A stretch of DNA of 64,000 nucleotides from Verrucomicrobiota bacterium (GTDB lineage: Bacteria > Verrucomicrobiota > Verrucomicrobiia > Chthoniobacterales > Chthoniobacteraceae), in assembly GCA_003402745.1 (NCBI GenBank), contig QQND01000005.1, forward strand, positions 1,357 to 65,356, in the 5' to 3' direction. This document shows positions 28,515 to 45,347 of the stretch, piece after piece. Both the position numbers and the translations under genes were made by a program. Under the pieces are notes generated by a model that saw only the letters and a program-made list of their open reading frames with translations, was not told the origin of the DNA and did not search any database. Each line of letters opens with the position of its first letter. The first letter of the stretch is position 1.

Positions 28515-29486
28515 TCAAAAAACCCGGTCTATCAACGCCTCACCCCTTTCAAAAAGGACAAGGTTCGCCAGGAAATGCCTGACCAAAGCCTCGTCTTGAT
28601 CATGACGCCCCCCAGCCGTGTGCGGTGTGATAAAACAGTTCGGCGTCGTCCAAAGCTCATGCTCGGGAGGCAACGGTTCAGGTTCGGTGACATCCAAATA
28701 AGCAGCCGCGAGCCGCCCCGCCCTTAGTGCGTCTACCAAGGCATTCTGGTCCACGGTCGTCCCACGGCCGATATTGTAGAATTGCGCGCTGGGCTTGATC
28801 TGGGCAAACCGCTCCTGATTCATGAAATCACGGGTTGCTGCGTTGGCAGGAAGAATGTTCACCACATGGTCCGCGGTCTTCAGCGCTCCGGCGAGTGCTT
28901 CCGCACCCACAATTTCCACGCCCGCCGCCGCAAGAGCGCGGCGCCGGTAGGCAAGTAACCGAACACCGAAGGGCGCCAGCAGTTCTGCAAGGCGGCGTCC
29001 GATCGCTCCAAACCCGAGGAGTAGCACCGTCTGTCCCGTCAGAAGTCGGGAGTGATAACGGCGTTCGTCGTAATGCCACGAGTGATCCGTAATTTGATCG
29101 CGGTAAGAGGGGAGAATCTGCCGCGCAAATGCCAGCATCATGGAAAGAACGTGTTGTGCGCACGGATCCGCAAATACCCCGGACGCATTGGTAAAGGCGG
29201 CTCCTCGCGCCCTAAAAGCCGCGCCGAACTCCTCCGTGTCATAACGCGTGTAACCCGCGGAACTCACCTCGACCCACTTTAGTCGTTTGTTCTCAAAACA
29301 ATCTGCCAGGCTAGGCTGACCAAAAGCCACATCTACCAATGCAAATCCTGGGTCAGATGCGCCCGCGTTGAGCACAGAGGCGCTCGCTCGTGGAGCGCTC
29401 AAAAGCCGGTGTCCACTTGTACCCTTCTCCAAAAGTTGCAACGCAGCAGGCGCGAAAATTTCGTTGGTCCATATCGTAAGACTCAT
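28515..29486 (-). CDS. D-isomer-specific 2-hydroxyacid dehydrogenase family protein
   Basis: 'GQTVLLLGFGAIGRRLAELL' (NAD fold), 'NIGRGTTVD', 'LDVTEPEPLP' and 'ITPHTAG'. Start placed at the internal ATG (MSLTIW). Confidence 0.85.
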   Translation of the reverse strand: MSLTIWTNEIFAPAALQLLEKGTSGHRLLSAPRASASVLNAGASDPGFALVDVAFGQPSLADCFENKRLKWVEVSSAGYTRYDTEEFGAAFRARGAAFTNASGVFADPCAQHVLSMMLAFARQILPSYRDQITDHSWHYDERRYHSRLLTGQTVLLLGFGAIGRRLAELLAPFGVRLLAYRRRALAAAGVEIVGAEALAGALKTADHVVNILPANAATRDFMNQERFAQIKPSAQFYNIGRGTTVDQNALVDALRAGRLAAAYLDVTEPEPLPPEHELWTTPNCFITPHTAGGRHDQDEALVRHFLANLVLFERGEALIDRVF

Positions 29487-29562: not shown

Positions 29563-31017
29563 TCATCGAAGTTCCGCTAGCAAAACCGAGGGTTGTTTCC
29601 CAGGTGCACAATGCCGGCCGATAACTTCGATAAGGGCGCGCAGGTCACTCTCGCTAGTAAACGGATTCATCAGTGCGGTTCTTAACCAGACCTCGCCCTT
29701 TAAGACCGTTTGGACGATGTAAAACTCACCCGCGGAGACAACCGCAGCGCGAATTTTACGCTGCAACTCATTCGCTGCATCCACATCCAAACCAATGGTT
29801 TTTACGCGAAAACAAACGATATTTGATTCCGGCCTGACCGCCGTTTCAAACCGTTCGTCCTGTCTTAATATCTCATCGAATAAGACCGCGGTTGCGTGGA
29901 CGCGCCGGAGGTTCTCCACGAAAAGGCCCTCCCCATGCACTCTCCAAATCGAGGCGATTTTCAGACTCATCGCCAGCTTCGTACACTCAAACGAACGACG
30001 CCCCACATTAAACCATTCCGCTTCCCTGGAAGCATCCCACAGATATTGCGCCTTTTGTTCAAACGCCGACCACGATTGTGAACCGTCTCGGAAGACAACA
30101 GCCGTAGCCAAAGCGGGGGTGAGAAGAAGTTTGTGGAAATCTAAAACCACGGAATCTGCGCGCTCAATTCCCACAAGGCGCTCGCGTAGTTCACTGCAAA
30201 AAGCAACCGCAGCTCCGTGCGCTCCATCCACGTGAAACCATAACCCGCGGCGCTCACAAAAATCTGCGATCGCGTTCAAGTCGTCGTACGATCCAGTCGA
30301 CGTTGTGCAGGCGCTTCCCACCACAGCAACCGGCGTCCTGCCTTGCAAAACACATTGCTCAAACACCTCATCCAAAAGATCAACCCGCATTTTAAAACGG
30401 GCATCCACTGGCACCACAGCAAAGCCGTTTCGCCCCCACCCCATCACATGCGCCGCACGCGCAGAGCAGTAGTGCGCTTCCGCAGAGGCCATAATCGCCC
30501 ACTTCGGCTCGGTCCCTGACTCGATCGCACCCCCCACCTGTTTGGCGCGGGCTGCAAGGAGAGCTGTTGTCATCGCAAGCGTCCCCCCAGAAGTGAGAAA
30601 CCCGCTCCCCTGCGGCATCCCTAAAAGATCAGAAGTCCGTTCAATAATCCAGCGCTCCAAAGCAGTCGCAGACGGCCCCATCTCATAAACCGCCATCCCG
30701 TTGTTGAGCAGTTCGGAGACCAACCCCGCCAAGGCTGCGACTGGGGCCGGCGCACAAACCTGATGTCCCATATAGCGCGGGTGATGCAGGTGAATCGCCC
30801 TCTTCACAAATTCATCCAGAAACTCAAAAGCCTCTCCTGAAGGCTCCTGCATTTTTTGGGCCCAGAACGCAAATTCCACCTCAGGCCCCTCTCCGTTGAC
30901 CACTCGCCCTTTGCGTGAGAGAGCAGAAGATAGATGGTCGGCGAGGAGGTCCACCACGCGGTGGCCTAATTCACGAAATGCCTCTGGCTCAAAAGCTCTT
31001 TCCAAGGGACTTTTCAT
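29563..31017 (-). CDS. Group II PLP-dependent amino-acid decarboxylase
   Basis: Fold-type-I decarboxylase layout with 'HVDGAHGA' and the PLP-lysine context 'SVVLDFHKLLLTP'. Confidence 0.8.
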   Translation of the reverse strand: MKSPLERAFEPEAFRELGHRVVDLLADHLSSALSRKGRVVNGEGPEVEFAFWAQKMQEPSGEAFEFLDEFVKRAIHLHHPRYMGHQVCAPAPVAALAGLVSELLNNGMAVYEMGPSATALERWIIERTSDLLGMPQGSGFLTSGGTLAMTTALLAARAKQVGGAIESGTEPKWAIMASAEAHYCSARAAHVMGWGRNGFAVVPVDARFKMRVDLLDEVFEQCVLQGRTPVAVVGSACTTSTGSYDDLNAIADFCERRGLWFHVDGAHGAAVAFCSELRERLVGIERADSVVLDFHKLLLTPALATAVVFRDGSQSWSAFEQKAQYLWDASREAEWFNVGRRSFECTKLAMSLKIASIWRVHGEGLFVENLRRVHATAVLFDEILRQDERFETAVRPESNIVCFRVKTIGLDVDAANELQRKIRAAVVSAGEFYIVQTVLKGEVWLRTALMNPFTSESDLRALIEVIGRHCAPGKQPSVLLAELR

Positions 31018-31145: not shown

Positions 31146-32228
31146 CTATTCCCACGCAGGTTTCTGGTTGAGAAAATTAGGCGAATATTCCGTGGGGTCG
31201 TAGGCCCGCACCCAGAGCGGGCTCGCAGCACCAGATATCGGCGGCACAAGCCAGTCCCAACGGCCCGTCACCGGCCGTCCACAGGCTTTCTCCTCCTCCT
31301 CAAACCGAACATGCAACTGCGCCGCTGTGTGGTGGTCGATCATCCTGACTCCCGCCTCCCGGAACGAATGCAACACCGCTCGATTAAGCTCAACCAACGC
31401 TTTGTCCCTCCACAACGATCCCTCCCTTTTTTCAAAAATTCCCATCCGCTCAGCGAGTTCAGGAAGCACATCATAACGGCTCCAGTCCGCAAGATTTCGA
31501 GCCCCAATTTCCGTTCCCATGTACCAACCGTTGAACGGAGCTGCTGGGTACCGGATGCCCCCGATTTCCAAAAGCATATTGGTCACCACCGGAACCGAAT
31601 ACCAGCGCAGCTCCATTTCCTTAAACCACAAAAATTCTGGGTGTTCCATTTTTACCTCTAAAACACTTTCCGGCGGCACTTCAAATACGGCGGGCCTCGC
31701 ACCCGGCCCAGAAACCACGATGGGTAGAACATCAAACCGACCCGGACGCTCCGGCGCATTCCATCCCAGGGTCTTACAGTGCTCTGTAAAGCGAGCTTCA
31801 GCAGGGTCGCCCAAAACCTCTCCATCTTCGGCCGCATATCCTGCGTATCGCACAAGTTGATAGTTCCAGACCCGCCAGGGCACCCGGCCGCGCTGGGCGG
31901 GAAAAACCGTAACCAGCGGCCGGACCGCACCGCCATTTGTCGCCAACTTCAAGTGCTCAACACATTTTTCCGCGAGACCCTCCGCGCACTCCGTTTGCCT
32001 CGCATCGCGAACCTCCAATTGTTTCCAAAAGTAACGGCCAATACAACGGACGCTGTGCCGCCAGGCGAACCGGCATCCCCATAGCAACTCTTCAGGGGTA
32101 TGCTCGTAAAAGCGGTGCCGATCAATTTCGCGAAGAACCGCGCTTCGCCGTGCAAGGGTCACCCCCGGCCCACCCTCCTCACTTTCCAAAAGATCCAAGA
32201 AAGCTTCGGCTTTTTGTTTTAACGACAT
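31146..32228 (-). CDS. nos: Nitric-oxide synthase, oxygenase domain only (bacterial NOS)
   Basis: 'AWRHSVRCIGRYFW', with the heme-thiolate Cys codon at 32045..32043. Also 'GWYMGTEIGARNLAD' and 'WLVPPISGA'. Length (about 360 aa from MSLKQK) fits bacterial NOSoxy, and no reductase domain is present. Confidence 0.85.
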   Translation of the reverse strand: MSLKQKAEAFLDLLESEEGGPGVTLARRSAVLREIDRHRFYEHTPEELLWGCRFAWRHSVRCIGRYFWKQLEVRDARQTECAEGLAEKCVEHLKLATNGGAVRPLVTVFPAQRGRVPWRVWNYQLVRYAGYAAEDGEVLGDPAEARFTEHCKTLGWNAPERPGRFDVLPIVVSGPGARPAVFEVPPESVLEVKMEHPEFLWFKEMELRWYSVPVVTNMLLEIGGIRYPAAPFNGWYMGTEIGARNLADWSRYDVLPELAERMGIFEKREGSLWRDKALVELNRAVLHSFREAGVRMIDHHTAAQLHVRFEEEEKACGRPVTGRWDWLVPPISGAASPLWVRAYDPTEYSPNFLNQKPAWE

Positions 32229-32330
32229 TCTGCCGCGTATCTTCAGGCGGCGGTAAACAGAAGCTGACGCACCATCGCCTGAGGCGGCTCCGGGCAAGAC
32301 TAGAGGGCACTCTGGCATTGCAAACGTAAA

Positions 32331-33170
32331 CTAATTTGCCGGACCGTCCGCGCTCAGACCGGCCTCTTCCCAAAGCTTCAATTCACTTTCTTTTTGGCCC
32401 AGAGTGCGGCGCAGTTTTGCAATCGCGTACTTTCCGAGCACCAGCCGCATTGGAGCATTCTCTGAGGCAACCACCTGCAGGATCGCATGAGCTGCCCGTA
32501 CCGCGTCGCCAGGCTGTTTTCCGTCCATCCCCCCAATGATCTTGGAAAACTTGCCGACGGACGATTCGTATTCAGAAAGGTTTCCAGAAGTTTTCTCCAA
32601 AGACCGGCTTATAAAATCAGTGCGGAACGGGCCCGGCTCAATGATCGTCACCTTCAACCCAAACGCACGCCCCTCCGCCGCAAGCGATTCGCTCATCCCT
32701 TCAAGCGCACACTTAGCTGCGCCATAGATTCCAAAGCCGGGATAGTTTGCGATTGCTGCCGCCGCGCTCATGTTTAGCACATGTCCGCCTTTCTGAGCTC
32801 GAAAGCTTGGAAGCAATTCTCGGATCATATTTAGCGCACCAAAGAAATTCACTTCGAAGATTCTCCGGATCTGGTCGTCCGAACTCTCCTCCAGAGACCC
32901 AAGCAGGCCGTAACCCGCATTGTTCACCAAGACGTCAATCCGCCCGAAAATGCTGAGCGAATCCGTGACCACCGTTTTTATATGATCCGGCAGCGTGACA
33001 TCGAGTTCAGCGATGTGAGCCGTTTTAGGCCATCGGGCTGCAAACTCAGCAATCGCAGAGATGTTTCTTGCTGTTACAATCACCCGCTCTCCCCGTTCTA
33101 GAGCGGTTTGGGCTAGTGCCCGGCCAAAGCCGCTTGATGCTCCCGTAATCAGCCATACTTTTTCAGACAT
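32331..33170 (-). CDS. Short-chain dehydrogenase/reductase (SDR)
   Basis: 'WLITGASSGFGRALA' (TGxxxGxG), 'NNAG' and 'YGAAKCAL' (YxxxK). Confidence 0.85.
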   Translation of the reverse strand: MSEKVWLITGASSGFGRALAQTALERGERVIVTARNISAIAEFAARWPKTAHIAELDVTLPDHIKTVVTDSLSIFGRIDVLVNNAGYGLLGSLEESSDDQIRRIFEVNFFGALNMIRELLPSFRAQKGGHVLNMSAAAAIANYPGFGIYGAAKCALEGMSESLAAEGRAFGLKVTIIEPGPFRTDFISRSLEKTSGNLSEYESSVGKFSKIIGGMDGKQPGDAVRAAHAILQVVASENAPMRLVLGKYAIAKLRRTLGQKESELKLWEEAGLSADGPAN

Positions 33171-33248: not shown

Positions 33249-34514
33249 CTATCCGCGCAGCGGTTGGGAAACCCATCCGCAAAGCCACGAACGCAGATGA
33301 GACGGCATTCCTTCACTCTGGTGCGCAACAACCACAAGACAGGGGCCTCCCCCGAATACTGAAACTCCACCGCGGGCGTGGTTGACGGTGACGCTTAAAA
33401 ACCCGTCTTGTGCTCCATGCGTCAACGAAGCGCTCTCCAGGATTTTTTCCAGCCGAAACCGCGTCGTAGCCGCTTTTGTATCAACGCCCAGTTCTCCAGT
33501 TTGCATCGCGTCGTCTCCAAGCCACAAAGCAAATCCCCGCACCTCTGGAAATCGAGAGAGCGAGAGACCCAGCTCTTCAAACCGCATTTGCTGAAGAGCT
33601 GGAGGACCCAGAGAAATCTCCCCTTGCGCGCGCCCACCACTCGCCTTTTGAGGAACATCACTCGACAACAAGTGCCCTGATGATGGCACAGCCTCAGCCG
33701 CTTCAGCCGTTTTTTCCCGTTGAACGAATCCTACTTTTTCTGTTTCAAGAATCCGCAACGTTGGCGCAATTTGCCGCACAGGAGTCTGTGCCGGTGGCAC
33801 TATCCCGCTTGCGTACGCCTCCAAGATCTTTTTTAAACGGCCGCTTGCAGGAATCCCCGGCGAGGGAACCGTCGATTCCCGTGCCGTACCTTGGCTCTCA
33901 AGCTTAGGACTTGGCGCCTCAAACACCAGTAATTCGCCAAAAGCCGAAGAATCGACATTCTTTGAAACCGGCAATTCTACACTCCGCAGAGCCTTCGCGG
34001 TTTCCCGCGCTTCCCTCGACCGGGCCCGCTTCGTCTGAGTTTCCCCCTCCCAATGGGTAAACGTCTCAGATTCTATCTGCGCCTCGTCCAAGACCTCGGC
34101 AGGCACCTCGGTCAGCGCTGGCTCCGGTTCGCGCAACGGCTCCATCGCGAGATCCACCCCGATGTCTCTCTCCTTCACTCCCGGATCTCGGAAAAAATCA
34201 GGGTAGCATTTAACCAAATAACGCAAGGAATAGGCCAGTGGCCTTTCGGCACCCGCGTTTAAGCGCCCGGCCGCCTGCAGTGTGATCATCTGCTCCGGAA
34301 CCCATTCGCCGGAGCGCCTCCAAGCAGCCGGCACGCGCGCCATAAGGTCACCAAGCGTCAAACGATGCGCAGAGCCACGGGCGGCCTCCACAGGCACCTC
34401 TAGGGCCACAGCAGGCCGCGCTCCCGGACCGTCGATAGGCTCGAAAATAATATCCTCAGCTTTGGGAGCAGAACGGCCAACAAGCCCTCCCAACATACGG
34501 CGCAAAAAACCCAT
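33249..34514 (-). CDS. Hypothetical protein (about 421 aa)
   Basis: Long ORF with no family recognised. Start placed at ATG 34514 (MGFLRRMLGG), because the longer ORF would overlap the photolyase gene. Confidence 0.5.
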   Translation of the reverse strand: MGFLRRMLGGLVGRSAPKAEDIIFEPIDGPGARPAVALEVPVEAARGSAHRLTLGDLMARVPAAWRRSGEWVPEQMITLQAAGRLNAGAERPLAYSLRYLVKCYPDFFRDPGVKERDIGVDLAMEPLREPEPALTEVPAEVLDEAQIESETFTHWEGETQTKRARSREARETAKALRSVELPVSKNVDSSAFGELLVFEAPSPKLESQGTARESTVPSPGIPASGRLKKILEAYASGIVPPAQTPVRQIAPTLRILETEKVGFVQREKTAEAAEAVPSSGHLLSSDVPQKASGGRAQGEISLGPPALQQMRFEELGLSLSRFPEVRGFALWLGDDAMQTGELGVDTKAATTRFRLEKILESASLTHGAQDGFLSVTVNHARGGVSVFGGGPCLVVVAHQSEGMPSHLRSWLCGWVSQPLRG

Positions 34515-34605
34515 GTCTTCTTTGAAAGCGTGAAAGAGTGCCGGGTGCAAGCCATGGAATTCTGGAACCGCACGGAAAAAGGGGCGGCGAACCGCACCTC
34601 GGTCC

Positions 34606-36138
34606 TCAGCCCCCTTTAATCTGGGCTGCCTGCACGCGGACTGCCTCAAGGAACTCCGGGGTGAATCGGTCTAGGTTTTTGAGCTGAAGAGCCATGCGCT
34701 GGTTGCCCCCAAGCCTCGCCCTGTTCCTCGCCAAAAAATCCCAGTAAAGCGTGGTAAAAGGACAGGCCTTCTCACCCACAGAAAGCGCAGGGTCGTAAAT
34801 GCACCCACGGCAATAATCGCTCATTCGCTGTATGTATTTGCCGCTTGCGGCATAGGGCTTTGACGCCATGACACCGCCGTCTGCGTACTGCGACATTCCA
34901 ATCGTGTTCGGGATCTCCACCCATTCCACGGCATCGATATAGACCCCCAGATACCATTCATGAACCTCAATAGGCCGGACTCCCAGAAGCAAGGCGTAAA
35001 GGCCCGTCACCATGAGTCGCTGAATATGATGGGCATATCCAAGCTTCAGAGTCTGGCCAATCGCCTGCTTGAGACATTGCATGTCTGTTTCTCCTGTCCA
35101 ATAAAAAGCAGGTAACGCAGCGTGCGCCTCCAAAGCATTCGCCTCCAAATATCCGGGCATCGAACGCCAGTAAATGCCCCGAACATATTCCCTCCATCCC
35201 AGAATCTGACGAATAAACCCCTCCGCCGCGGCAATGGGAACCAATCCCAGATTCCAAGACTTCTCCGCAGCAGTGATGACTTCCAGCGGACAAATCAGCT
35301 TGAGGTTGAGCGCTGCACTGAGTCGCGCATGGTACAACCAAGGTTGCCCAGTCCACATGGCGTCTTGATACTGCCCGAAATAAGGCAGCCGGTTCGTGAT
35401 GAAATCCGAAAGCGCCTCCAGAGCCTGGTTGCGGGTCACAGGAAAGTCAAAATGCCTGCTCGTTCCGGGGGCCTCAGGTAACTCGCGGTCCACCATTTCT
35501 ATCACACTACGGGTCGTTGAATCAGGGGCAAAAGCAATAGGCGCTGGCAACAGTTCGGGCCCGTTTTTCCCAAAACCCCCTCGGTTCAGTGCATCAAAAT
35601 TCCACGCGCCTCCGGCCGGTTTTGCGCCCTCCATCAAAACACCAAGGCGTTGGCGCATCTCCCGATAAAAAAACTCCATGCGCAGCTGCTTGCGCCCTTT
35701 AGCATGTGCTTCAAATTGCCTGTGAGAGCACAGAAAATGGGGGTCCTCGAGCCAATCCCCCTCCCCGTTTGGCCAGAGAATCAAACGGAGTCCTTCGCGC
35801 AAGCGCCACTCCCCAGGCTCTACCGCGACAATCTCCTTCGGCCTGTGTTTTTCAATAAACCGTTCCAATGCACCAGACAGACTTCCCGCGTTATCCGGCG
35901 CCTGCAGTTCCGTGTACTCCACACGCCAACCCTTCGCCAACAAGCCATCTCTAAAGTGGCGCATCGCCGCTAAAAACATCACGATGCGTGCCTTGGAGCT
36001 GACCACATGCGTGGATTCCTCCCGCACCTCCGCCATCCAAATACAATCGATTTTGGGGTCGAATTGTGAAAACGCAGGAGAAGCCTCATCAAGTTGATCT
36101 CCAAAAACTACGACAAGCCGTCTAAGCATCCCCCTCAT
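34606..36138 (-). CDS. Cryptochrome/photolyase-family protein of the Fe-S (FeS-BCP / PhrB-CryB, (6-4)-type) class
   Basis: About 510 aa. 'LVVVFGDQL' N-terminus, 'YAHHIQRLMV', and a Cys set (C..'YCRGCIYDP'..'KACPFTTLYWDFL') arranged as in the 4Fe-4S photolyases. Confidence 0.8.
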   Translation of the reverse strand: MRGMLRRLVVVFGDQLDEASPAFSQFDPKIDCIWMAEVREESTHVVSSKARIVMFLAAMRHFRDGLLAKGWRVEYTELQAPDNAGSLSGALERFIEKHRPKEIVAVEPGEWRLREGLRLILWPNGEGDWLEDPHFLCSHRQFEAHAKGRKQLRMEFFYREMRQRLGVLMEGAKPAGGAWNFDALNRGGFGKNGPELLPAPIAFAPDSTTRSVIEMVDRELPEAPGTSRHFDFPVTRNQALEALSDFITNRLPYFGQYQDAMWTGQPWLYHARLSAALNLKLICPLEVITAAEKSWNLGLVPIAAAEGFIRQILGWREYVRGIYWRSMPGYLEANALEAHAALPAFYWTGETDMQCLKQAIGQTLKLGYAHHIQRLMVTGLYALLLGVRPIEVHEWYLGVYIDAVEWVEIPNTIGMSQYADGGVMASKPYAASGKYIQRMSDYCRGCIYDPALSVGEKACPFTTLYWDFLARNRARLGGNQRMALQLKNLDRFTPEFLEAVRVQAAQIKGG

Positions 36139-37748
36139 TTCGTCCCCTTCGGCCTAGTCTTAAATAAAATCCCCTCGAACTCGGTGCGAACCTTGTCCAA
36201 ATCCTGGGATGTCGGAGCTCCAGACAAACACAGCCGTACCTCACCCTTCTGGTTCACGACAAAAACCTCAATTGAAAAGCCCGGGCTGCAGAGCTGATTC
36301 ACATTTTTGGCGCTCCAATCCATCAGTACGGGCCACTGCGTGCCATCCCGGATCATCATCCGTACGGCGCCGTGAAAAATGGACGGGATGTTTCTCACGT
36401 CGGCCAAGCCCAGAATCTCGACGTTTGCGCCAAAAACATCGTGTATGGGTTTAACCCATGCGGCTATTTTACTCGTCCCTGAGCGGGACGATGCCACAAG
36501 CAATAAAGGCCGTTCTCGGGGAAAGCGTATCTCGTGCGGTTGCCCGACCTGATCCTCAAGAACCAAATCAGGACACCGCTCCGGCACCGCCTCAACAACA
36601 GATCCTGAGAGGCATAACAACATTCCAACCATAGGGAGGACACGTCCCCGCCAACCTACCGGCCTGCCCGTCCAAAAACGCAAAGCTCCGTACCATTGGT
36701 TGAGTAAGAGCGCGCCCACCGCGACAGGTTGCAGAAGCACTCCGGCAAGCGGTTGATTAAAACGAAACGCAAGCACACCACGTCCAGCAAACCCCAGCGC
36801 AAGAGCCAACAAAGCCCACCGCCCAGAGACTTTATCAAGATGCCCAGAAAGCAGACCAAGCAGCGGAAAAACCTGCCCGAAAAAAAGCAGCAGCCCAAAT
36901 GGTAGAACGCTTTTGGGGGAAGCTAGTCCCTCGTGCGCGTTCTTCGCAAAACCCCGCCACACTTCACCCAAGCCTGTGTACATACGGCAAACGGCAACTC
37001 CGCTTGCGTCGAATAAATCTGCAATCTTACCCGCCTTCCGAAAGGCGCGCGCAAGGCCGATCCCCTCGTGGAAACTCTGCTTGGTGATCTCGTGTCCGCC
37101 CACTTCAAAGTAAGCACTCCTGCGGATAAGCATCAACTGCCCACAAGCGGCCGCAAACCTGGGATCCGCTGTCGCCCGCATCCGTTGGAGCGGCAAAAAA
37201 CCCAGGAGCACAAAGTGGATCAAAGGAATGATCATGACCTCAGATAATGTTCCAAGTCTTTGCCATGGGATACCACTTAGAAGATCAAGTTCGGGACGAA
37301 GAAATGCAGCCGCCATTCGCGCGAGCGCATCGCCTCCTCGGAAGCGCACGTCCGCGTCCATGAAAACAAGAATGTCCCCCTTGGCTGCCTGCGCCAAACT
37401 CCAACATCCAAATGGCTTTCCAGCCCATCCTTGAGGAGGAGGAGTTCCTTTGAAAAAACCGACTCGAGAATCCTCAGCAGCAAGCAATTGAACAATTTCG
37501 GCCGTCGCATCTGTGGACCCATCATCCCAGACAAGCACTTCAAAATTTAGCCCCTCACAATGCAGCACAGATTCAATGGCCGCCCGGATATTTGCCTCCT
37601 CGTTCCTCGCAGGGATCAAGACAGAAACAGAGGGAACGTCCCTCACTGACGGGTCGCCAAGGGGCCGGTAAAGGCGCAGGTTCGCCACAATCATCGCAAC
37701 TGGAAGCGCCGCTGCTACACTGCAAAACATCATTACCGCAGGATTCAT
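36135..37748 (-). CDS. GT2 glycosyltransferase (CrtQ-like) with multi-TM region and a C-terminal redoxin-like domain lacking Cys
   Basis: 'VLIPARNEEANI', 'VWDDGSTDAT' and 'FMDADV' (DxD). Start ATG 37748 overlaps the upstream stop (ATGA), and the stop overlaps the photolyase start (36135..36138). Confidence 0.75.
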   Translation of the reverse strand: MNPAVMMFCSVAAALPVAMIVANLRLYRPLGDPSVRDVPSVSVLIPARNEEANIRAAIESVLHCEGLNFEVLVWDDGSTDATAEIVQLLAAEDSRVGFFKGTPPPQGWAGKPFGCWSLAQAAKGDILVFMDADVRFRGGDALARMAAAFLRPELDLLSGIPWQRLGTLSEVMIIPLIHFVLLGFLPLQRMRATADPRFAAACGQLMLIRRSAYFEVGGHEITKQSFHEGIGLARAFRKAGKIADLFDASGVAVCRMYTGLGEVWRGFAKNAHEGLASPKSVLPFGLLLFFGQVFPLLGLLSGHLDKVSGRWALLALALGFAGRGVLAFRFNQPLAGVLLQPVAVGALLLNQWYGALRFWTGRPVGWRGRVLPMVGMLLCLSGSVVEAVPERCPDLVLEDQVGQPHEIRFPRERPLLLVASSRSGTSKIAAWVKPIHDVFGANVEILGLADVRNIPSIFHGAVRMMIRDGTQWPVLMDWSAKNVNQLCSPGFSIEVFVVNQKGEVRLCLSGAPTSQDLDKVRTEFEGILFKTRPKGTK

Positions 37749-38545
37749 AAGCAGGAAGAGTGATTGAGTGCCGCCTTTTCCTTGTTCCACATTGCCTTGA
37801 AACGCCGCCACAAATCGTATGGGACAGAAACCCCACCTCGGCCCTGGAGAAGCGTTTCAAAAAGAGTTCCCTCTCTGTTGCAGGCCTCGGCGGCGAGCGC
37901 GTCCTGAATGCTCTCCAATCCCGCTTCCAGGCTCGCTTGCACCTCCGTGAAATTCGCTCCCAGACTCCTCCCGCTTTTCGCGGGACCGAACCGTAATATC
38001 ACCTCGGGATACCGTTCCTGACCAAATCCATATTCAATGGCAAGTGGCACGAACATGGCTTCCGGTTCTCTCACAGCAAGATGAGCAAGGCCAGCCGCAA
38101 AATTGACGGGCCGCTCACGAACATCGGCAAACCGCCCCTGAGGCGTGAGCCACAGCATCGCACCCGGCTGGGCAAGCAAGGCTCGTGAAGTGCGCAGAAA
38201 CGTCCGGGCACCCGAGACGGTTCCTTTTTCCACGCCAAACACTCCAAGATATTTAAAAAAACCGTACCGTTCCAATTGGGCTGCGTCTATCGGACCGAAT
38301 TGTGGGCGCCCCGGATAACAGCGCGCACCGAGCCACATCATTACGAGGGGATCCCACCACGAGGCGTGATTCAGATAAACCACGAGGGGCGTATTGTGTG
38401 AAACAAGAGGTGCGTGTCCCCCTTGAGTCATTCTAACGGCGTGAAAATTTCCTCGCAACGCCCTCTCAATGTATCCCAAAAAGCCAGCCAACAACACCGG
38501 TACGATTCTAGCGGGCGCTTGTTGGGAATTGCGAGCCGGTTTCAT
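37745..38545 (-). CDS. PlsC-family acyltransferase (CrtO-like)
   Basis: HX4D motif 'NHASWWDP'. Start placed at ATG 38545 (MKPARNS), 5 nt after the upstream stop. Confidence 0.75.
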   Translation of the reverse strand: MKPARNSQQAPARIVPVLLAGFLGYIERALRGNFHAVRMTQGGHAPLVSHNTPLVVYLNHASWWDPLVMMWLGARCYPGRPQFGPIDAAQLERYGFFKYLGVFGVEKGTVSGARTFLRTSRALLAQPGAMLWLTPQGRFADVRERPVNFAAGLAHLAVREPEAMFVPLAIEYGFGQERYPEVILRFGPAKSGRSLGANFTEVQASLEAGLESIQDALAAEACNREGTLFETLLQGRGGVSVPYDLWRRFKAMWNKEKAALNHSSCL

Positions 38546-38550
38546 GGCCG

Positions 38551-40092
38551 TTAAACGTGCACCTTCGGATTTTTTGGAACTGCCTTGTCTGCATCGAGCG
38601 CATCGGCAGCAATCCACCCGCTCATGAGCGCCATGGGCATTCCAGGACCGGGATGAGCGGAGCCCCCTGCGAGGTAAAGCCCTTTCACATCGGGACTCCG
38701 ATTTGAAGGCTTCAAAGAACCGCTGATTCTGCCGTGACTGGCCAGTCCATAAATCGCCCCATGAAGAACCTGATAGCGGTCCTGAATGTCCTGAGGCGTG
38801 AGTATTCGTTCTGTGACAATCCTCTCCTCAAGATCCTCTAAACCTGCGGTGCGCTTAAGCTTATCGATAATCGTACGCCTGTAAGCCGGAAGAATTACCT
38901 TCCAGTCCTGTCCCGGCCGCAGATAGGGGGTGTGCACAAGAACATACAGCGCTTCTCCCCCTTCAGGAGCCACACCGGGCTCCGTTCCCGAGGGAGCGCA
39001 GACATAGCACGTCGGATCAGGCGCGGGTATTCCTTGCTCATAGATCGCATCAAACTCGAGGTGCGGATCGGCACTGAAAACAAAGTTGTGGTGCAGAAGA
39101 TGCTCGTATCGCTTTTTTAAGCCGAGATACAAAACCACCCCCGAACACGCAGGCTCGTACTTGCGCCTCTTTTCAAACTTCCCTGCAACTGGTCCGCCGA
39201 GAAGATCCCTATGGGTGAGAACACTGTCTCGATTCGAAACCACTGCTGAGGCCGCAATTTTTTCTCCGGAAGAAGTTTCCACTCCGACCGTGCGCCCCTC
39301 CTCCACTAAGATCCGGGAGACGGAGACGCCAGTTTCGATTTTAACTCCGAGCTGGACCGCCAGTTTTTCCAGTGCCGCAGGAACAGCCGCAGTGCCTCCA
39401 CGCGGGTACCAAACCCCTTCGCTAGACTGCATGTGGGCGATCCCGCAGAGCACTGCCGGCGACAATTCTGGCGAAGATCCCACATACTGAGTGAAATGAT
39501 CCAGCATCTGGGTGACGCGTTCATCCGGTACGTAGGAACGGAGAAGTCCCGAAACGGTGCGCCCTAGTCGGATGGCCAGCACGTCTTGGAGGGAACCCGC
39601 GCGGACCATATCGCGCGCCGAAAACATATCCATCATTTTGCCGATGGGCCGCCAAAAGAAAACCCTCTCTGAGATATCGGACTGCCGCTTTGAGAGCTCT
39701 AAAAACTTCACGTAGCCATCGCCACTCTTCGTGCCCGGTGAAAATGCGTCTATCCGCTTCGCCATCTCCGGACCATCGGCAACAAGATCGAGCGTTGAGC
39801 CATCCTCGAAAAAACTGCGCCACTGCGGATCGAGACGGACCAAATCCAATTTGTCCTCCAGAGCTTGGCCTGCCTCGGCAAAAATACGCCGGAGCACCGA
39901 GGGAACGGTGACGATTGTCGGCCCCATGTCGAATCTAAAACCCTGCTCCTCATGAACAGCCGCCTTGCCTCCAAGCCAGCTGTTCGTTTCCAAAAGACGG
40001 ACCGTATAGCCTCTTGCTGCTAACGTGCAGCTCGCGGCAAGTCCTCCCAACCCCCCTCCGATTACCAAAATCTGATCCGTTTTTGTCTTCAT
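38551..40092 (-). CDS. Phytoene-desaturase-family oxidoreductase (CrtN/CrtP-like)
   Basis: 'ILVIGGGLGGLAASCTLAARGYTVRLLE' FAD fold and 'GLYLAGGSAHPGPGMPMA' C-terminal motif. Confidence 0.8.
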   Translation of the reverse strand: MKTKTDQILVIGGGLGGLAASCTLAARGYTVRLLETNSWLGGKAAVHEEQGFRFDMGPTIVTVPSVLRRIFAEAGQALEDKLDLVRLDPQWRSFFEDGSTLDLVADGPEMAKRIDAFSPGTKSGDGYVKFLELSKRQSDISERVFFWRPIGKMMDMFSARDMVRAGSLQDVLAIRLGRTVSGLLRSYVPDERVTQMLDHFTQYVGSSPELSPAVLCGIAHMQSSEGVWYPRGGTAAVPAALEKLAVQLGVKIETGVSVSRILVEEGRTVGVETSSGEKIAASAVVSNRDSVLTHRDLLGGPVAGKFEKRRKYEPACSGVVLYLGLKKRYEHLLHHNFVFSADPHLEFDAIYEQGIPAPDPTCYVCAPSGTEPGVAPEGGEALYVLVHTPYLRPGQDWKVILPAYRRTIIDKLKRTAGLEDLEERIVTERILTPQDIQDRYQVLHGAIYGLASHGRISGSLKPSNRSPDVKGLYLAGGSAHPGPGMPMALMSGWIAADALDADKAVPKNPKVHV

Positions 40093-41573
40093 TGTACGTT
40101 TTTGTTTTTTAAACTTTTGCGTGCCTCCCTCCAGGCCAGCACACCACTCTTAATCAGAGAAACTACGCCCGTAAGCCTCGCCCAAATTCCGTTCCCGTGT
40201 GTCAGCCGTATCATTGCCATGGCGAGATCGGCACTGACCTCCTCCGGTTCCAAATGGGCCATTGAGCCCCCGTTGCGAACCTGCAGGACCTTGATGCGCG
40301 TGAGCTCTAGCAATCCCTCTGCTCCGCGCGTCACTCCGTAACCACTACGGCCGGAGCCTCCAAATGGAATTCGAGGATCTGCACTCGGCACAATCAGATC
40401 ATTGACCGTAACCAGCCCGGCGCGAACTTTCAATGCCATCTCGGAGGCTGCGCCAAGGTCCGTTGAAAAAACCGATGCGCCTAGCGCGTATTCACACTGT
40501 GCTGCGGCAGCAAGGGCTTCAGCATCGGAATCTACGGCAATTATACAAAGAATTGGCGAAAAAAAATCTCCGAGATCAGCCATCAGATCGGAAGGCACAT
40601 CCGTGAGCACGTAGGGAGCATCGCTTGTCTCATTTGCTGTATCGCCATAGACAATCCGGGCGCCTCGTCTTAATGCCTCCGCGCGCCATAGGCTAAGAGC
40701 GCTAGACTTCCCAGCGGAGCTCGTTGAAAAGAGCCGGCAGTTCATGGAGTCGAAAGCATCTTTTATTGCCGATTCCAATTCTGCGGCTCGTCCCCGTTCC
40801 ACAAACACCCGCCTCGGAGCCAGACAGGTGCGGCTCTGGTTGAAGGTGAGTCCAAAGCGGAGCGCCTTTGCCACAAGCGTGACGTCGGCATCGCCTCGGA
40901 CAAACACAGCGTCGCAACCCGACAACTCTAGAACCGCTGGAATCGCCCTTTGGGAAAGCGCTTGCAACACCTTTGTTCCGTTAGCAAAGCCTCCGGTGAA
41001 AACAACTTTGTCCACCGGTTCTTTTAACAAAGCTGCACCAGCCTCAACCGTGTCCTCGAGAACAATCAGCAAACCCGCTGGAAGACCGGCTTCTGCACCC
41101 AATTCCGCCAAACGCTGCGCAACGGCACCGCCCCCTGGCGCGGGTTTCCAAACCACTGCATTTCCAGCCACGAGCGCTTGAAGAACTTGGACACCACCTA
41201 GAAAAAGCGGGTAGTTCGAGGGCGAAATAATCGACACCACACCGAGAGGTTCCCTGTGAATTTCAGACCGAACTCCTCCGAGCCACCAAGGCCTGCCACG
41301 GCTCCCCAAAGAACGCCGCGCAAGAAGCTTAACAGCATTCTCTTCAAGGAACACGCAGGCCTCCAGCAACGGAAGAACCTCGGAGAGTAAGACCTCGTGA
41401 ATCGGGTGAGAACTTGAAGCCCCTGCCTCCGCTAAAACTCCACACGAATCTGAAATCCGCCCCCGCAACCTGCGCAACACAAGCAAGCGGGATTCAACCG
41501 AGCCTTGACGCCAACTCCATTGGGCTGCGCGGGCCTGTGCTACGCCTTCCGCAATGTTTGGCGCGACCCTCAT
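40089..41573 (-). CDS. Aldehyde dehydrogenase (carotenoid-aldehyde dehydrogenase-like)
   Basis: 'ELSGCDAVFV' and 'FNQSRTCLAPRRVFV' (catalytic Glu/Cys contexts). The stop overlaps the downstream start (ATGA at 40089..40092). Confidence 0.8.
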   Translation of the reverse strand: MRVAPNIAEGVAQARAAQWSWRQGSVESRLLVLRRLRGRISDSCGVLAEAGASSSHPIHEVLLSEVLPLLEACVFLEENAVKLLARRSLGSRGRPWWLGGVRSEIHREPLGVVSIISPSNYPLFLGGVQVLQALVAGNAVVWKPAPGGGAVAQRLAELGAEAGLPAGLLIVLEDTVEAGAALLKEPVDKVVFTGGFANGTKVLQALSQRAIPAVLELSGCDAVFVRGDADVTLVAKALRFGLTFNQSRTCLAPRRVFVERGRAAELESAIKDAFDSMNCRLFSTSSAGKSSALSLWRAEALRRGARIVYGDTANETSDAPYVLTDVPSDLMADLGDFFSPILCIIAVDSDAEALAAAAQCEYALGASVFSTDLGAASEMALKVRAGLVTVNDLIVPSADPRIPFGGSGRSGYGVTRGAEGLLELTRIKVLQVRNGGSMAHLEPEEVSADLAMAMIRLTHGNGIWARLTGVVSLIKSGVLAWREARKSLKNKNVQ

Positions 41574-41773
41574 GACGCCTCTCTACAAAAATGCCGGCCC
41601 GCTTGCCGCAAATGCGTCTCCGCAAGCCGGCGCCCCGCCCGGACGAACACGCCGCGGTCCCCCCGGACGCGACAGGCTCCCATGACGGGACGACGGCTTG
41701 CAGAGACAACGAGCGCGTTTCCCCAGTGCCGACGGATAACTCTTGGTGCTGATTCGATCACAGAAAATGTGTT

Positions 41774-43357
41774 CTAGCAATGGGAACCCGCTCTGGAGGC
41801 CAATTTGGAGGCGATCGAGCCCCATTCTTGCGTAATGCTGGACTCGAGGTTGAAGTGAGGCTCAGCAACAGGGCTCGGAACCCCAAAGTCTTCGCACAAA
41901 AGCCGGGAGGTGATTCGAGCCCCCTCGTAAATAACGGGCAACCCGCTTCCTGGGTGTGTGCCTCCACCCACGAGATACATTCCATCAATGTCCTCGAAAC
42001 GATTGCGGGGACGAAAATGAAGCATTTGAGAAAGCGTATGGGCCAGATTAAAGGTCGCCCCCTTGTGGATGGAAAAACCATTCTCCCATTCGTCCGGCGT
42101 CAGCATTTTCTCGTATCGGATCCGCTTCCGCAGTCCACTAAAACCCGCCGCCTCCGCGGCCACGAGAAGTCGTTCGCGGAACGCCACCTTGTCTGCCTGC
42201 CAGTTGATGTTCGCGGTTTGATGCGGAACTGGCGCGAGCAAATAAAGCGTGCTGCTACCACTGGGCGCCAGCGACGGATCGGTCACACACGCATTTTGAA
42301 CGTAAAATGAAGGCTCGGAGGGTAATACTTTTAGATCTTCGATCTCCCTCAAGTTTTGCCGGTACTGGCTGGAAATCTGGATGGTGTGATGCGGCATATC
42401 CGGATATTCCCCCTCCACTCCGAGATAGAGCATAAAGGTAGAACACGAGTACTGCTTCGTTTCCAGTTTCGCGTCTGTCCAATTCCTGCGAAGTTTGTCG
42501 GGAACCAAGTGCCCCATGGCATGCGCAAAATCAGCATTCAGCACAACTGCGTCGGCATGGTACATGCCCGCCTTGGTGCGCACTCCCGTGACTCTGCGGC
42601 CACTAAATCGGAGGTCTTCCACCGGTTCGTTGAGACGCACATCCACCCCCATGCGCTGCGCAACACGGGCCATCGCCTGACTCACTTCGCCACAGCCACC
42701 AACGGGATGCCACACCCCATAATCGTATTCCAAGTAGCTGAGAATGCTGAACAAACTGGGACACCGGAATGGAGACATTCCGAGGTACTTGCTTTGAAAG
42801 CTGAAAGCCAAACGGACGCGCTCGTCGGAGAAAAATTTATGCAGGTAACCGTCCACCGACTCCCAGGGCCGTATATGGGGCAGGGAAGAAATCACCTCTT
42901 TGGCCAAGAGACTTCCCCAACCTAAAAACGGCCGCTCCAAGCAGGATCGGATACCGTTGAACTTGGCGCGATTGTCATCCAAAAAACGCCGAAACCCCCC
43001 CTCGTCCGCCGGGCAAATCTGCGCTATTTGCCGCTCCATCTCCTCCGGATTCGGAGTCGCATCTATTTTCCCGCCCGTTCCAAACTGAATTCTGTACTGG
43101 GGATCCAGACGGATCATCTCAACTTCCTTCCGCAAATTGGTTCCCGCGGCGCGAAGGATTTCGTCGAGGATTTTGGGATATAGAAAGAAGGTCGGCCCGA
43201 GGTCGAACCGGAAACCCTCCTCCTCAATGGACGAAGTCCTTCCTCCAACAGTCGTCATTTTCTCGAGCACCGTCACCCGAAAACCGGCCGCCCCAAGGAG
43301 GATAGCAGAGGCCAAGCCACCCGGTCCGGCACCAACGATAACAATTTCTTGTGCCAT
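41774..43357 (-). CDS. Phytoene-desaturase-family oxidoreductase (CrtN/CrtI-like)
   Basis: 'IVIVGAGPGGLASAILLGAAGFRVTVLE' and 'MYLVGGGTHPGSGLPVI'. Confidence 0.8.
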   Translation of the reverse strand: MAQEIVIVGAGPGGLASAILLGAAGFRVTVLEKMTTVGGRTSSIEEEGFRFDLGPTFFLYPKILDEILRAAGTNLRKEVEMIRLDPQYRIQFGTGGKIDATPNPEEMERQIAQICPADEGGFRRFLDDNRAKFNGIRSCLERPFLGWGSLLAKEVISSLPHIRPWESVDGYLHKFFSDERVRLAFSFQSKYLGMSPFRCPSLFSILSYLEYDYGVWHPVGGCGEVSQAMARVAQRMGVDVRLNEPVEDLRFSGRRVTGVRTKAGMYHADAVVLNADFAHAMGHLVPDKLRRNWTDAKLETKQYSCSTFMLYLGVEGEYPDMPHHTIQISSQYRQNLREIEDLKVLPSEPSFYVQNACVTDPSLAPSGSSTLYLLAPVPHQTANINWQADKVAFRERLLVAAEAAGFSGLRKRIRYEKMLTPDEWENGFSIHKGATFNLAHTLSQMLHFRPRNRFEDIDGMYLVGGGTHPGSGLPVIYEGARITSRLLCEDFGVPSPVAEPHFNLESSITQEWGSIASKLASRAGSHC

Positions 43358-43371: not shown

Positions 43372-43575
43372 TTACAGGGGCGTCTTCAAGCCGCACGCCC
43401 GAGCGACGCACCAGCCTTTGAAAGCCTCAAAAAGCATGAACAAGCCGCTCCCACCCAGAGCCACCGCTGCAACCATGTGATCCCGCAAAAAAAACGCTCC
43501 GCCCAGGCAGCACAGCCCGCAAGCACCGCGAACCAAACGGCCGAGACGATCGATGTTTTGCTTGAAGAAACTCAT
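43372..43575 (-). CDS. DUF2892 (YgaP-like) small membrane protein
   Basis: 67 aa with two hydrophobic helices and the terminal 'FKGWCVARACGLKTP' typical of DUF2892. Confidence 0.6.
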   Translation of the reverse strand: MSFFKQNIDRLGRLVRGACGLCCLGGAFFLRDHMVAAVALGGSGLFMLFEAFKGWCVARACGLKTPL

Positions 43576-43738: not shown

Positions 43739-44692
43739 ATGCCCACTTCCGTTTCCATTCAAACCGTTGCCGAACGGACCGGCCTCACGCCCCACGCCAT
43801 CCGAGCCTGGGAGAGGCGCTATGGAGCGATCGAACCGGCCCGCTCAAAAGGCCGCCATCGAATGTATTCGGATTCTGACGTGCGGAGACTGGCACTCCTC
43901 GCTCGCGCAACTCGGGCGGGCAAGTCGATCGGCCGCATCGCACGCTTGGACGACGAAGAATTGAGCGCCATTGTTGCGGAGACTTCGCACAGCACCGCAC
44001 AGTCCTTGAGTGGATGCTTGGATGGAACGCACCGGTTGGCAGAGGCCGCGTTTTTTGAGAATGCGCTGCAGGCGATTCTAGCCCTGGATACGCAGTCGCT
44101 GGACGATACGTTTCAGGCGGCGCAGGTCAAACTGGGGGATCAAGGCTTGCTGAGACGCTTGATCACCCCTTTGGCGAGGGAGGTGGGCGGTCGATGGCGT
44201 ACCGGCCAACTCACCGCGGCTCAAGAGCATTTTTTCACCGCGATGTCCAAGGTGTTTCTGTGGAATCTCACCAGGCAGTACCAACTGGACGCGCATGCCC
44301 CAAAGATCGTGGTGGGAACGCCTGCGGGACAAATCCACGACCTAGGCGCTGTGATTGTGGCTGCTGCAGCCGCAAACAACGGCTGGCGTGTTTCTTACGT
44401 TGGAGCGAGCCTGCCGGCTTTTGAGCTCGCTGGGGCAGTGCAAACGGTTGGTGCCAGGGCAATCGCCCTCAGCATCGTGTACCCCGATGATGACCCAAAA
44501 CTGGAAATAGAACTCTCAAAACTTGGGCGCTTACTCCCCGAGAACGTCCATTTTTATGTCGGTGGCCGGGCCTCGAGTTTTTACCTGCCGGCGCTCAAGC
44601 GTTGTGGAGCCCGCGTACTGGGCTCGCTCGAGGAACTCGACGAAGAATTGGACACAGCTCGAAGAACATCCAATCGCCCCTCACTACCATGA
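43739..44692 (+). CDS. carH: CarH/LitR-type light-responsive regulator (MerR HTH + B12-binding domain)
   Basis: MerR HTH 'IQTVAERTGLTPHAIRAWERRYG'. Wx9EH motif 'WRTGQLTAAQEH' (W codon 44195, EH 44225..44230). B12 lower-ligand context 'GQIHDLGA' (His codon 44336..44338). Confidence 0.85.
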   Translation: MPTSVSIQTVAERTGLTPHAIRAWERRYGAIEPARSKGRHRMYSDSDVRRLALLARATRAGKSIGRIARLDDEELSAIVAETSHSTAQSLSGCLDGTHRLAEAAFFENALQAILALDTQSLDDTFQAAQVKLGDQGLLRRLITPLAREVGGRWRTGQLTAAQEHFFTAMSKVFLWNLTRQYQLDAHAPKIVVGTPAGQIHDLGAVIVAAAAANNGWRVSYVGASLPAFELAGAVQTVGARAIALSIVYPDDDPKLEIELSKLGRLLPENVHFYVGGRASSFYLPALKRCGARVLGSLEELDEELDTARRTSNRPSLP

Positions 44693-45168
44693 TGAATTCA
44701 AAATCGAAGAGCATCCATGAGGAGCAGTGGGTGCCCTTGTCGCAGGACAAAGTATTCGCCTTTTTCTCCAACGCCGAAAACCTCGAAAAGGTAACCCCAC
44801 CTTGGGTCGGATTCCGCATTCTCACAAGCACCCCTATTGTCATGGCTGCCGGAATCATGATCGATTACGAAGTGCGAATCCACCGGCTTCCAATGCGCTG
44901 GCGTTCGGAAATTACCGAATGGGTTCCCCCGCATCATTTTGTTGACGTGCAACGCAAGGGGCCCTACTCGGAATGGAAGCACCGCCACTCTTTCCGCGAA
45001 CTCAATGGCGGGACCTTGGTGACAGATGATGTGGAGTATCTCGTTCCCCTGAGTTGGATGCCCGGGGCGGGATTAGTAGAACGGTTTTTGGTGCGCCCGG
45101 AGCTAAACCGGATTTTCGCGCACCGGCGCTCCGCACTGCGGACGCACTTTGGTTTGCCGCCGGAATGA
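44689..45168 (+). CDS. SRPBCC (START/cyclase-dehydrase-like) family protein
   Basis: About 159 aa with the start overlapping the carH stop (ATGA). 'FFSNAENLEKVTPPW', 'F.D.Q.KGPY..W.H.H.F' pattern. Confidence 0.65.
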   Translation: MMNSKSKSIHEEQWVPLSQDKVFAFFSNAENLEKVTPPWVGFRILTSTPIVMAAGIMIDYEVRIHRLPMRWRSEITEWVPPHHFVDVQRKGPYSEWKHRHSFRELNGGTLVTDDVEYLVPLSWMPGAGLVERFLVRPELNRIFAHRRSALRTHFGLPPE

Positions 45169-45347
45169 GTGCGCCACCACTCTCGACGAACAGCCTTCCA
45201 TTTTTACAGCAGAAAAGCGTCTCGCGAAAAAACAGTCCGTATCTAAATAATGCCCGACTCAAGCCGACGATTTTAGACAGATCTCCCCTTTCCTTCGGAA
45301 TTCAATACTCTCTCCGCTCCCCAAAAACGCAGCAAAACCCTTTAAGC

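Follow-up and report, generated by a model that had tools for sequence, protein, structure and literature searches.

The nitric oxide synthases (NOSs) of Bacillus and Geobacillus (bsNOS, 1M7V; gsNOS, 2FLQ) consist of one oxygenase domain and have no reductase, no calmodulin site and no zinc-binding Cys-x4-Cys motif, whereas the mammalian enzymes, the cyanobacterial syNOS and the NOS of Sorangium are multidomain proteins with a fused reductase. Stand-alone oxygenases are also known from actinomycetes, in which TxtD, RufN and PtnF are tightly clustered with other enzymes, and from Deinococcus radiodurans, in which NOS is reported to take part in the recovery from UV damage (both reviewed in PMC9500659). 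Here, we describe a NOS gene (nos) on a stretch of 64,000 nucleotides, referred to as the window, from contig QQND01000005.1 of a Verrucomicrobiota bacterium (assembly GCA_003402745.1). Sequence comparisons and structure models make it likely, with a probability of about 75%, that nos encodes a functional stand-alone NOS oxygenase and represents the accessory last gene of a UNK-SDR-nos unit, composed of an orphan gene (UNK), a gene for a short-chain dehydrogenase/reductase (SDR) and nos, in a clade of freshwater Verrucomicrobiota consisting of Chthoniobacterales- or 'Spartobacteria'-like metagenome-assembled genomes (MAGs). The gene and three of its codons are located as follows (residue numbers refer to the 390-amino acid protein throughout):

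31146..32318, minus strand: nos, stand-alone NOS oxygenase, 390 amino acids (Pfam PF02898, 473 bits; PDB matches, AlphaFold2 model and Foldseek).
32043..32045, minus strand: codon of the heme-thiolate Cys92 within RCIGR, from direct sequence reading.
31511..31509, minus strand: codon of Glu270, a key substrate residue.
31586..31584, minus strand: codon of Val245 at the Val/Ile switch position.

An earlier note on this DNA had recognized a stand-alone bacterial NOS oxygenase from its sequence signatures, and this identification is confirmed. The open reading frame (ORF) on the minus strand ends at 31146, and translation of 31146..32228 yields 360 amino acids containing RCIGR, GWYMGTEIGARNLAD and WLVPPISGA. 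The match to the Pfam family NO_synthase (cutoff 22.7 bits, E=7.8e-142, profile positions 5-362 of 362) is far above chance. The top PDB sequence match is the Geobacillus NOS 2flq with an E-value of 1.1e-115, followed by Bacillus NOS (about 1e-107) and mammalian NOS (iNOS, about 1e-103), and the matches range overall from 1e-115 to 1e-95. The AlphaFold2 model (pLDDT 91.3, pTM 0.90) shows the 'catcher's mitt' fold of the family, as Foldseek aligns it with bsNOS at a TMt of 0.93, an rmsd of 1.9 Å and 46% identity, and with nNOS at a TMq of 0.87-0.89.

The catalytic residues are in line with this identification. In an alignment of 20 NOS homologues nine columns are invariant (W86, C92, W265, Y266, E270, R274, N275, W354, W356), and Gln154 is kept in 19 of the 20 sequences, which bears out the expectation of the note that the conserved Arg and Trp residues for substrate and pterin are intact. 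The heme-thiolate Cys92 of R-C-I-G-R is encoded by tgt at 32045..32043, exactly where it had been placed, and the proximal Trp86 is found six residues upstream. The L-arginine-binding set is represented by Glu270 (G-T-E-I-G), Tyr266 and Trp265 (G-W-Y-M), Gln154, Arg274 and Asn275, and the pterin-stacking tryptophan pair of W-x-W-L-x-P-P by Trp354 and Trp356. The ORF contains one Pfam domain and no fused reductase, globin or calmodulin-binding module. Judged by sequence and predicted structure, the nos product is an intact stand-alone bacterial NOS oxygenase showing every testable feature of the family. NCBI already lists relatives under the name 'nitric oxide synthase oxygenase [Verrucomicrobiota bacterium]'; nos is both correctly identified and annotatable automatically.

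The earlier note had also seen no obvious reductase nearby, and indeed no flavodoxin, ferredoxin-NADP reductase (FNR) or diflavin reductase gene is present within about 25 kb of nos; the only Fe-S or NADH-type proteins of the window are encoded at 60.6-63.9 kb. Because no reductase is fused to or located near nos, we propose that the electrons would be delivered by non-dedicated cellular reductases of the flavodoxin/ferredoxin type, on which the Bacillus and Geobacillus enzymes presumably rely as well. The NOS dimer would bind heme and reduced pterin and convert L-arginine and O2 to citrulline and NO. In a sunlit and oxic habitat, this NO would most likely act in signalling or protect against stress.

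A closer comparison with bsNOS and gsNOS reveals identical heme, arginine and pterin residues, including Asn275 at the position of Asn248 of bsNOS, and the same absence of a calmodulin site and the zinc motif. Unlike Firmicute NOSs, the window NOS carries a conserved 30-residue N-terminal extension with a Cys-Pro motif, and the UNK-SDR-nos unit is not seen in Firmicutes; furthermore, bsNOS differs by Ile218 instead of Val, by His128 instead of Tyr (Tyr153) and by Ser-Pro instead of Ser-Gly after WLxPP. In sequence, mammalian iNOS, nNOS and eNOS are nearly as close to the window NOS as the Firmicute enzymes (350 versus 360-390 bits), and they share with it Val at the switch position and the PP(I/V)SG motif, in which Ser-Gly follows WLVPP. 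Some of the Foldseek alignments to nNOS and iNOS extend over 388-391 columns and consequently include the N-terminal extension. The window NOS differs from the mammalian enzymes in lacking the reductase domain, the calmodulin site, the zinc Cys-x4-Cys motif and the beta-hairpin hook, and from iNOS in having the bacterial Asn at the position of Asp376. With regard to the NOS of D. radiodurans, no sequence-specific or contextual link is established. The Deinococcus enzyme interacts with tryptophanyl-tRNA synthetase II, a partner that is not seen in the window.

The switch position, 25 residues ahead of the substrate Glu, is occupied by Val245, the variant for which a fast release of NO is predicted. 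Ile at this position in most of the studied bacterial NOSs slows the release of NO, and Val represents the eukaryotic state (PMC6120233, PMC9500659). In the Verrucomicrobial NOS clade Val is found in 35 of 37 members, but it is also present in 58 of all 94 scored homologues, many of them labelled as Actinobacteria. Therefore, we rejected the idea of an exceptional 'mammalian' trait; by sequence comparison the Val switch appears to be a characteristic of the clade.

The start of nos has to be revised. The earlier note had let the gene begin at 32228, behind a gap of 102 bp, but the reading frame is open upstream to an ATG at 32318, and sequence and model agree that this ATG is most likely the true start, which results in 390 instead of 360 amino acids. 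Nearly all close NOS relatives have a length of 388-400 amino acids and their N-termini align with the extension of the window NOS. The 30 added residues (MPECPLV...ASVYRRLKIRGR) contain M-x-x-C-P at the tip and VYxRL about 20 residues further in, and both motifs are conserved in the relatives. In the model, residues 1-10 are of low confidence and flexible, residues 17-25 or thereabouts are helical, and the block-mean pLDDT of residues 11-20 (72) is lower than that of residues 21-30 (93).

32229..32318, minus strand: 30-residue N-terminal extension with the conserved M-x-x-C-P and VYxRL, partly helical; Cys4 codon at 32309..32307.
32319..32330, minus strand: junction of 12 nt from the stop codon of the SDR gene (TAG) to the ATG of nos.

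The 12-nt spacing is identical in three related loci (L001, L009 and L020) and amounts to 6 nt in a fourth (L017). With the start at 32318 and this spacing the presumed 102-bp gap (32229..32330) is mostly coding, and nos would be almost translationally coupled to the SDR gene.

Cys-Pro is present at the N-terminus of 30 of the 37 NOSs of the Verrucomicrobial clade. An MxxCP tip (CPF, CPV or CPL) recurs in several non-Firmicute NOS clades (N-termini of homologues P0002-P0067), including one with 'MSSCPF'. In the monomer model, the tip of the window NOS (Cys4, 32307..32309) has no ordered structure. Its similarity to Cys-Pro motifs of heme regulation and to the N-terminus of iNOS (MACPW) is no more than a lead, and in the case of iNOS it is probably coincidental. 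A literature search on Verrucomicrobial NOS or on an N-terminal Cys-Pro motif in bacterial NOS retrieved nothing relevant; in iNOS, Cys-3 is a palmitoylation site (PMC5515344). Four homologues (P0073, P0074, P0078 and P0109) combine the NOS oxygenase with a C-terminal GGDEF diguanylate-cyclase domain, in P0073 with NO_synthase at residues 54-413 and GGDEF at residues 428-577, and all of them except P0074 start with M-A-x-C-P. Such a protein would directly fuse NO and cyclic di-GMP, and we are not aware of any description of a NOS-GGDEF fusion.

The NOS sequences closest to that of the window are 64-77% identical and belong to Verrucomicrobiota, Chthoniobacteraceae and 'Spartobacteria' MAGs from freshwater (lake and reservoir) metagenomes, which fits the impression of a PVC-like genome in the earlier note. 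From this Verrucomicrobial, Chthoniobacterales-like NOS clade we examined 12 loci, namely the window, L001-L004, L009-L011, L016, L017, L020 and the contig of P0010. One of them (L002, CAMDSZ010000205.1) is titled as a MAG of 'Akkermansia muciniphila'. In view of the 61-70% identity of its SDR-nos pair to loci of the Chthoniobacteraceae type, and of an isolate name reminiscent of a freshwater time-series sample, this taxonomic label is probably wrong.

The two genes directly upstream of nos are the following:

32331..33170, minus strand: classical SDR oxidoreductase, 279 amino acids from ATG 33170, with the frame open to GTG 33206 (Pfam adh_short, 155.8 bits).
33249..34514, minus strand: UNK, an orphan of 421 amino acids with an N-terminal domain (residues 50-125 or so), a disordered linker and a C-terminal domain of Roadblock/LC7 fold (about residues 305-416) as predicted by AlphaFold2 and Foldseek.

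The SDR gene is the most conserved neighbour, located directly upstream of nos in 11 of the 12 loci and missing only in L010, while UNK is adjacent in 9 of 10 evaluable loci and missing in L017. In the outgroup NOS clades (L005-L008, L018/L019) none of the SDR, UNK, carotenoid (crt), decarboxylase and photolyase neighbours occurs. The unit is also found in changing surroundings: in L004, L010, L011 and L017 it lies in wholly different contexts without crt, photolyase or CarH genes, and UNK of L010 and L011 is preceded by a gene on the opposite strand, so that the unit has its own promoter there. We assume that nos would be co-transcribed with UNK and SDR as the last gene of this unit. The GC content is flat over the region (0.56-0.57 in nos versus 0.51-0.60 across the surrounding run of genes), and a recent horizontal transfer of nos was rejected in view of this native composition.

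Several points weigh against an interpretation of the unit as a functional one. UNK and SDR also occur without nos at apparently equivalent loci (L012 compared with L011, L014 compared with L010), and their persistence may mean that the adjacency goes back to one ancestral insertion followed by vertical inheritance and not to functional coupling. As the same loci hold UNK and SDR in the absence of nos, nos would be an accessory addition to the UNK(-SDR) unit. In addition, the 12 loci are phylogenetically related and do not count as independent observations, the operon structure is deduced from gene spacing, and the suggested role of NO is drawn from other bacteria (review PMC9500659).

The highly conserved pairing of SDR and nos raises the question of a direct contribution of the SDR to NOS activity. 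Sepiapterin reductase, PTR1 and DHPR are enzymes with SDR fold, and NOS needs tetrahydropterin. From this general knowledge, and from a pairing that is conserved in 11 of 12 loci and looks translationally coupled, the SDR could be a cofactor helper resembling sepiapterin, pteridine or dihydropteridine reductase that makes or recycles the NOS pterin. We consider this very unlikely, because the nearest family is PRK06180 (NCBIfam, 323 bits with a cutoff of 298), the nearest structure is an uncharacterised 'putative dehydrogenase' (PDB 3m1a, 1.6e-62), and pterin-reductase families or structures are absent from the top 25 NCBIfam and top 60 PDB matches. Moreover, the SDR is kept at an equivalent locus without nos (L012) and the window contains no gene for GTP cyclohydrolase or PTPS. 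A pterin-reductase assignment for the SDR was thus unsupported by family and structure matches, and the UNK-SDR-nos unit with nos as an accessory gene is the preferred reading.

UNK belongs to a tiny family. Clustering at 90% identity results in 90 clusters, and a deep profile search of 1.84 billion representatives retrieved 16 clusters at the level of 50% identity. The protein has no Pfam match even at E<=10, including Robl_LC7 (PF03259), and no PDB sequence match. Its AlphaFold2 model consists of two confident domains (pLDDT about 90) joined by the disordered linker. Foldseek relates the C-terminal domain to LAMTOR, MP1-p14, MglB and Roadblock proteins with E-values of about 1e-4 and a TMt of 0.55-0.72; all 26 PDB matches at E<=1e-3 are of the Roadblock/LAMTOR type (Ragulator subunits, MP1-p14, HBXIP and Asgard Roadblock), and the matches to MglB and dynein LC7 lie just above 1e-3. 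According to the model, the C-terminal 110 residues or so adopt the Roadblock/LC7 fold, which is typical of scaffold or regulatory functions and not of electron transfer. The alpha-beta-beta-alpha-beta-beta-beta-alpha order is common to UNK and the Roadblock/LC7 proteins MglB, LAMTOR/Ragulator and dynein LC7, but UNK differs from these by the extra N-terminal domain, the long disordered linker and the absence of a small GTPase gene nearby. UNK was also considered as redox partner or NO sensor and rejected, as there is no sequence match outside its own small family, the fold is Roadblock and the gene occurs without nos.

A short element, GCTTTCAAAGAA, is located 3-7 nt upstream of the UNK start in the window (34515..34535, minus strand), L001 and L009, and in degenerate form in L012 and L003. 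It is kept at the DNA level whatever the reading frame and may represent a leader or a translation-initiation signal. Footprinting of the region upstream of UNK in nine loci revealed only this short element next to the start codon as shared sequence and no operator.

Downstream of nos, the run of genes continues with two further enzymes:

29563..31017, minus strand: group-II pyridoxal phosphate (PLP)-dependent decarboxylase, DesA-like or 2,4-diaminobutyrate-decarboxylase-like (Pfam Pyridoxal_deC, 172.7 bits; PDB 5o5c, 3.6e-52; all NCBIfam matches under cutoff).
28515..29486, minus strand: D-2-hydroxyacid dehydrogenase, probably 323 amino acids from ATG 29486, final gene of the run (Pfam 2-Hacid_dh_C, 171 bits).

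In this sub-lineage, the unit would thus be extended by the decarboxylase and the dehydrogenase. The start codons chosen for the neighbours of nos match the lengths of the orthologues (SDR, ATG 33170, 279 amino acids; UNK, ATG 34514, 421 amino acids; dehydrogenase, ATG 29486, 323 amino acids, as in L009 and L020). A biosynthetic NOS comparable to TxtD, RufN and PtnF, which together with the SDR, the decarboxylase and the dehydrogenase makes a specialised metabolite from NO or N-hydroxy-arginine, would explain the tight spacing, which amounts to 12 nt between SDR and nos and to 6 nt between nos and the decarboxylase gene in L009 and L020. It would also agree with the resemblance of the decarboxylase to diamine-forming enzymes of siderophore pathways (5o5c) and with the established pattern of dedicated NOS genes in biosynthetic clusters (review PMC9500659). 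Nevertheless, we regard this explanation as improbable. The pair of decarboxylase and dehydrogenase follows nos in only 3 of 11 loci (the window, L009 and L020) and was rejected as a conserved NOS partner, the SDR is found without nos and falls into a generic subfamily, and the annotated ORFs of the window include no TxtE/RufO-like P450, non-ribosomal peptide synthetase (NRPS), polyketide synthase (PKS) or tailoring core. Like TxtD, RufN and PtnF the window NOS is a stand-alone oxygenase tightly clustered with enzymes, but unlike them it has no nitrating P450 and no NRPS/PKS, and its neighbours are a generic SDR and a scaffold-like orphan. The SDR and decarboxylase genes flanking nos also set the locus apart from the multidomain NOSs, in which the reductase is part of the same protein.

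The earlier note had drawn attention to the position of nos downstream of, and in the same orientation as, a photolyase gene, with an SDR and a 421-amino acid protein in between. The arrangement as such is correct, with a distance of about 2.3 kb between the photolyase-family gene and nos. Upstream of UNK, the window contains:

34606..36138, minus strand: gene of the FeS-BCP family, i.e., CryB / PhrB (6-4) photolyase (Pfam DPRP, 237 bits).
36135..43357, minus strand: carotenoid block with glycosyltransferase 2 (GT2, CruG-like), acyltransferase, CrtD/CrtI-family desaturase, aldehyde dehydrogenase and CrtI-family desaturase (Pfam and NCBIfam).
43739..44692, plus strand: CarH-type regulator with MerR helix-turn-helix and B12-binding domains, divergent from the run (MerR_1 58.8, B12-binding 43.1, B12-binding_2 29.7 bits).

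In total, 11 co-oriented minus-strand genes extend from 43357 down to 28515, mostly overlapping or separated by gaps of 12-200 bp, in the order CrtI-family desaturase, aldehyde dehydrogenase, CrtD/CrtI-family desaturase, acyltransferase, GT2, FeS-BCP photolyase/cryptochrome, UNK, SDR, nos, PLP decarboxylase and D-2-hydroxyacid dehydrogenase. The photolyase is a member of the FeS-BCP/CryPro group with matches to CryB (3zxs, E=1.2e-153) and to the PhrB (6-4) photolyase (4dja, E=2.7e-151). The genes of the carotenoid block are the ones that, by a staphyloxanthin-like logic, an acylated glycosyl carotenoid acid would require, with the divergent CarH regulator at its head, 11.4 kb upstream of nos.

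Based on this order, nos might be the tail of a CarH-controlled super-operon of crt genes, (6-4) photolyase/CryB, UNK, SDR and nos, in which NO aids the recovery from light or UV damage. The uninterrupted run of genes with short gaps and no convincing terminator, the divergent CarH-type gene, the precedent in Deinococcus (PMC9500659) and the origin of the relatives from lakes and reservoirs are in line with this idea. Furthermore, the carotenoid block adjoins the UNK-SDR-nos unit in 6 of 10 loci, and UNK of a further locus, L013, is directly preceded by a CarH-like gene and by the small ORF that is also present in the window, so that UNK may long have been associated with a CarH locus. In this genome, transcription reading through from the CarH-headed run could make nos light-inducible. 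We still consider a light or UV regulon unlikely. The survey of the nos-photolyase-crt linkage, as suggested in the earlier note, showed that the linkage recurs partially for the carotenoid block and hardly for the photolyase: of 10 evaluable loci, just two, the window and L009, have a photolyase-like gene of the CryB/PhrB type next to the unit, and this gene is missing in L020, which is otherwise collinear and encodes a NOS 75% identical to that of the window. The meaning ascribed to the photolyase position could therefore not be upheld, as the presumed spacers SDR and UNK are the conserved partners, and by comparison of the loci the photolyase adjacency is best described as a lineage-specific accident without a conserved functional link. 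The four loci with nos but without crt, photolyase and CarH genes, two of them with an own promoter of the unit, also argue against a light regulon.

The search for regulatory signals gave no additional evidence for light control. The sole repeat of the CarH-crt intergenic region, ATTTTGTCWAT, is confined to this part of the window, and its two copies (1.3 expected) do not exceed chance; only a weak TTGTCWA is shared with the CarH region of L013. The statement of the earlier note that the 102-bp gap lacks CarH-type repeats referred to mostly coding DNA and not to a gap. No operator-like repeat, promoter or terminator was assignable near nos. Promoter and terminator scans of 28.3-44 kb yielded counts equal to or under those of shuffled sequence, so that operon boundaries cannot be set from sequence. 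The gap between nos and the decarboxylase gene folds no better than shuffled sequences (z = +0.81), and the window contains no Rfam family and no tRNA.

The small ORF mentioned above ends with ...GWCxARACGLKTPx. In the window (about 43385..43575, minus strand) it separates the CarH gene from the first crt gene, and in L013 (5297..5498, plus strand) the CarH-like gene from UNK; judged by eye, it encodes a DUF2892/YgaP-like membrane peptide. In both loci, the CarH gene is also followed by a gene for an unannotated protein of about 400-500 amino acids and a PAS histidine kinase gene (window 45054..47834, plus strand; L013 949..3382, minus strand), which suggests a conserved module of CarH, uncharacterised protein and PAS kinase. 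A more far-reaching scenario, in which the Roadblock/SDR/NOS cassette of freshwater Verrucomicrobia ends a CarH regulon and provides light-induced NO together with carotenoids and (6-4) photolyase, and in which the Cys-Pro tip acts as a thiol or heme-regulatory switch common to many environmental NOSs including NOS-GGDEF, appears rather doubtful to us.

Outside the run, the window encodes some further unusual proteins. A signalling/redox cluster at 55361..63949 (minus strand), 23 kb from nos and with no link to nos shown, comprises a CHASE2 adenylate/guanylate cyclase, a FecR-domain protein, an 837-amino acid protein with cNMP-binding and 2Fe-2S/4Fe-4S ferredoxin domains and a NuoF-like Fe-S protein. 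A Rho termination factor of 766 amino acids with an N-terminal extension of about 400 residues is encoded at 52160..54460 (plus strand), and a giant ORF of 2186 amino acids without annotation at 1894..8454 (plus strand). At 13516..17133 (plus strand) we found a Ser/Thr kinase of 1205 amino acids with WD40 beta-propellers, and a similar kinase-WD40 gene adjoins nos in L016.

As the adjacency of the photolyase gene is not conserved, gene order is insufficient to lift the light/UV idea beyond a hypothesis. Modestly new are the Cys-Pro extension, the near-obligate upstream SDR, the orphan neighbour with a Roadblock domain and the presence/absence polymorphism of nos. The eukaryote-like details of the active site (Val switch, Ser-Gly), the Cys-Pro extension and the SDR are handles of this clade that bear on two questions, namely the reductant of stand-alone NOSs and the purpose of their NO. 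What is known about the biology of bacterial NOS comes nearly exclusively from Firmicutes, Actinobacteria and Deinococcus, and the Verrucomicrobial clade would extend it to abundant bacteria of sunlit freshwater.

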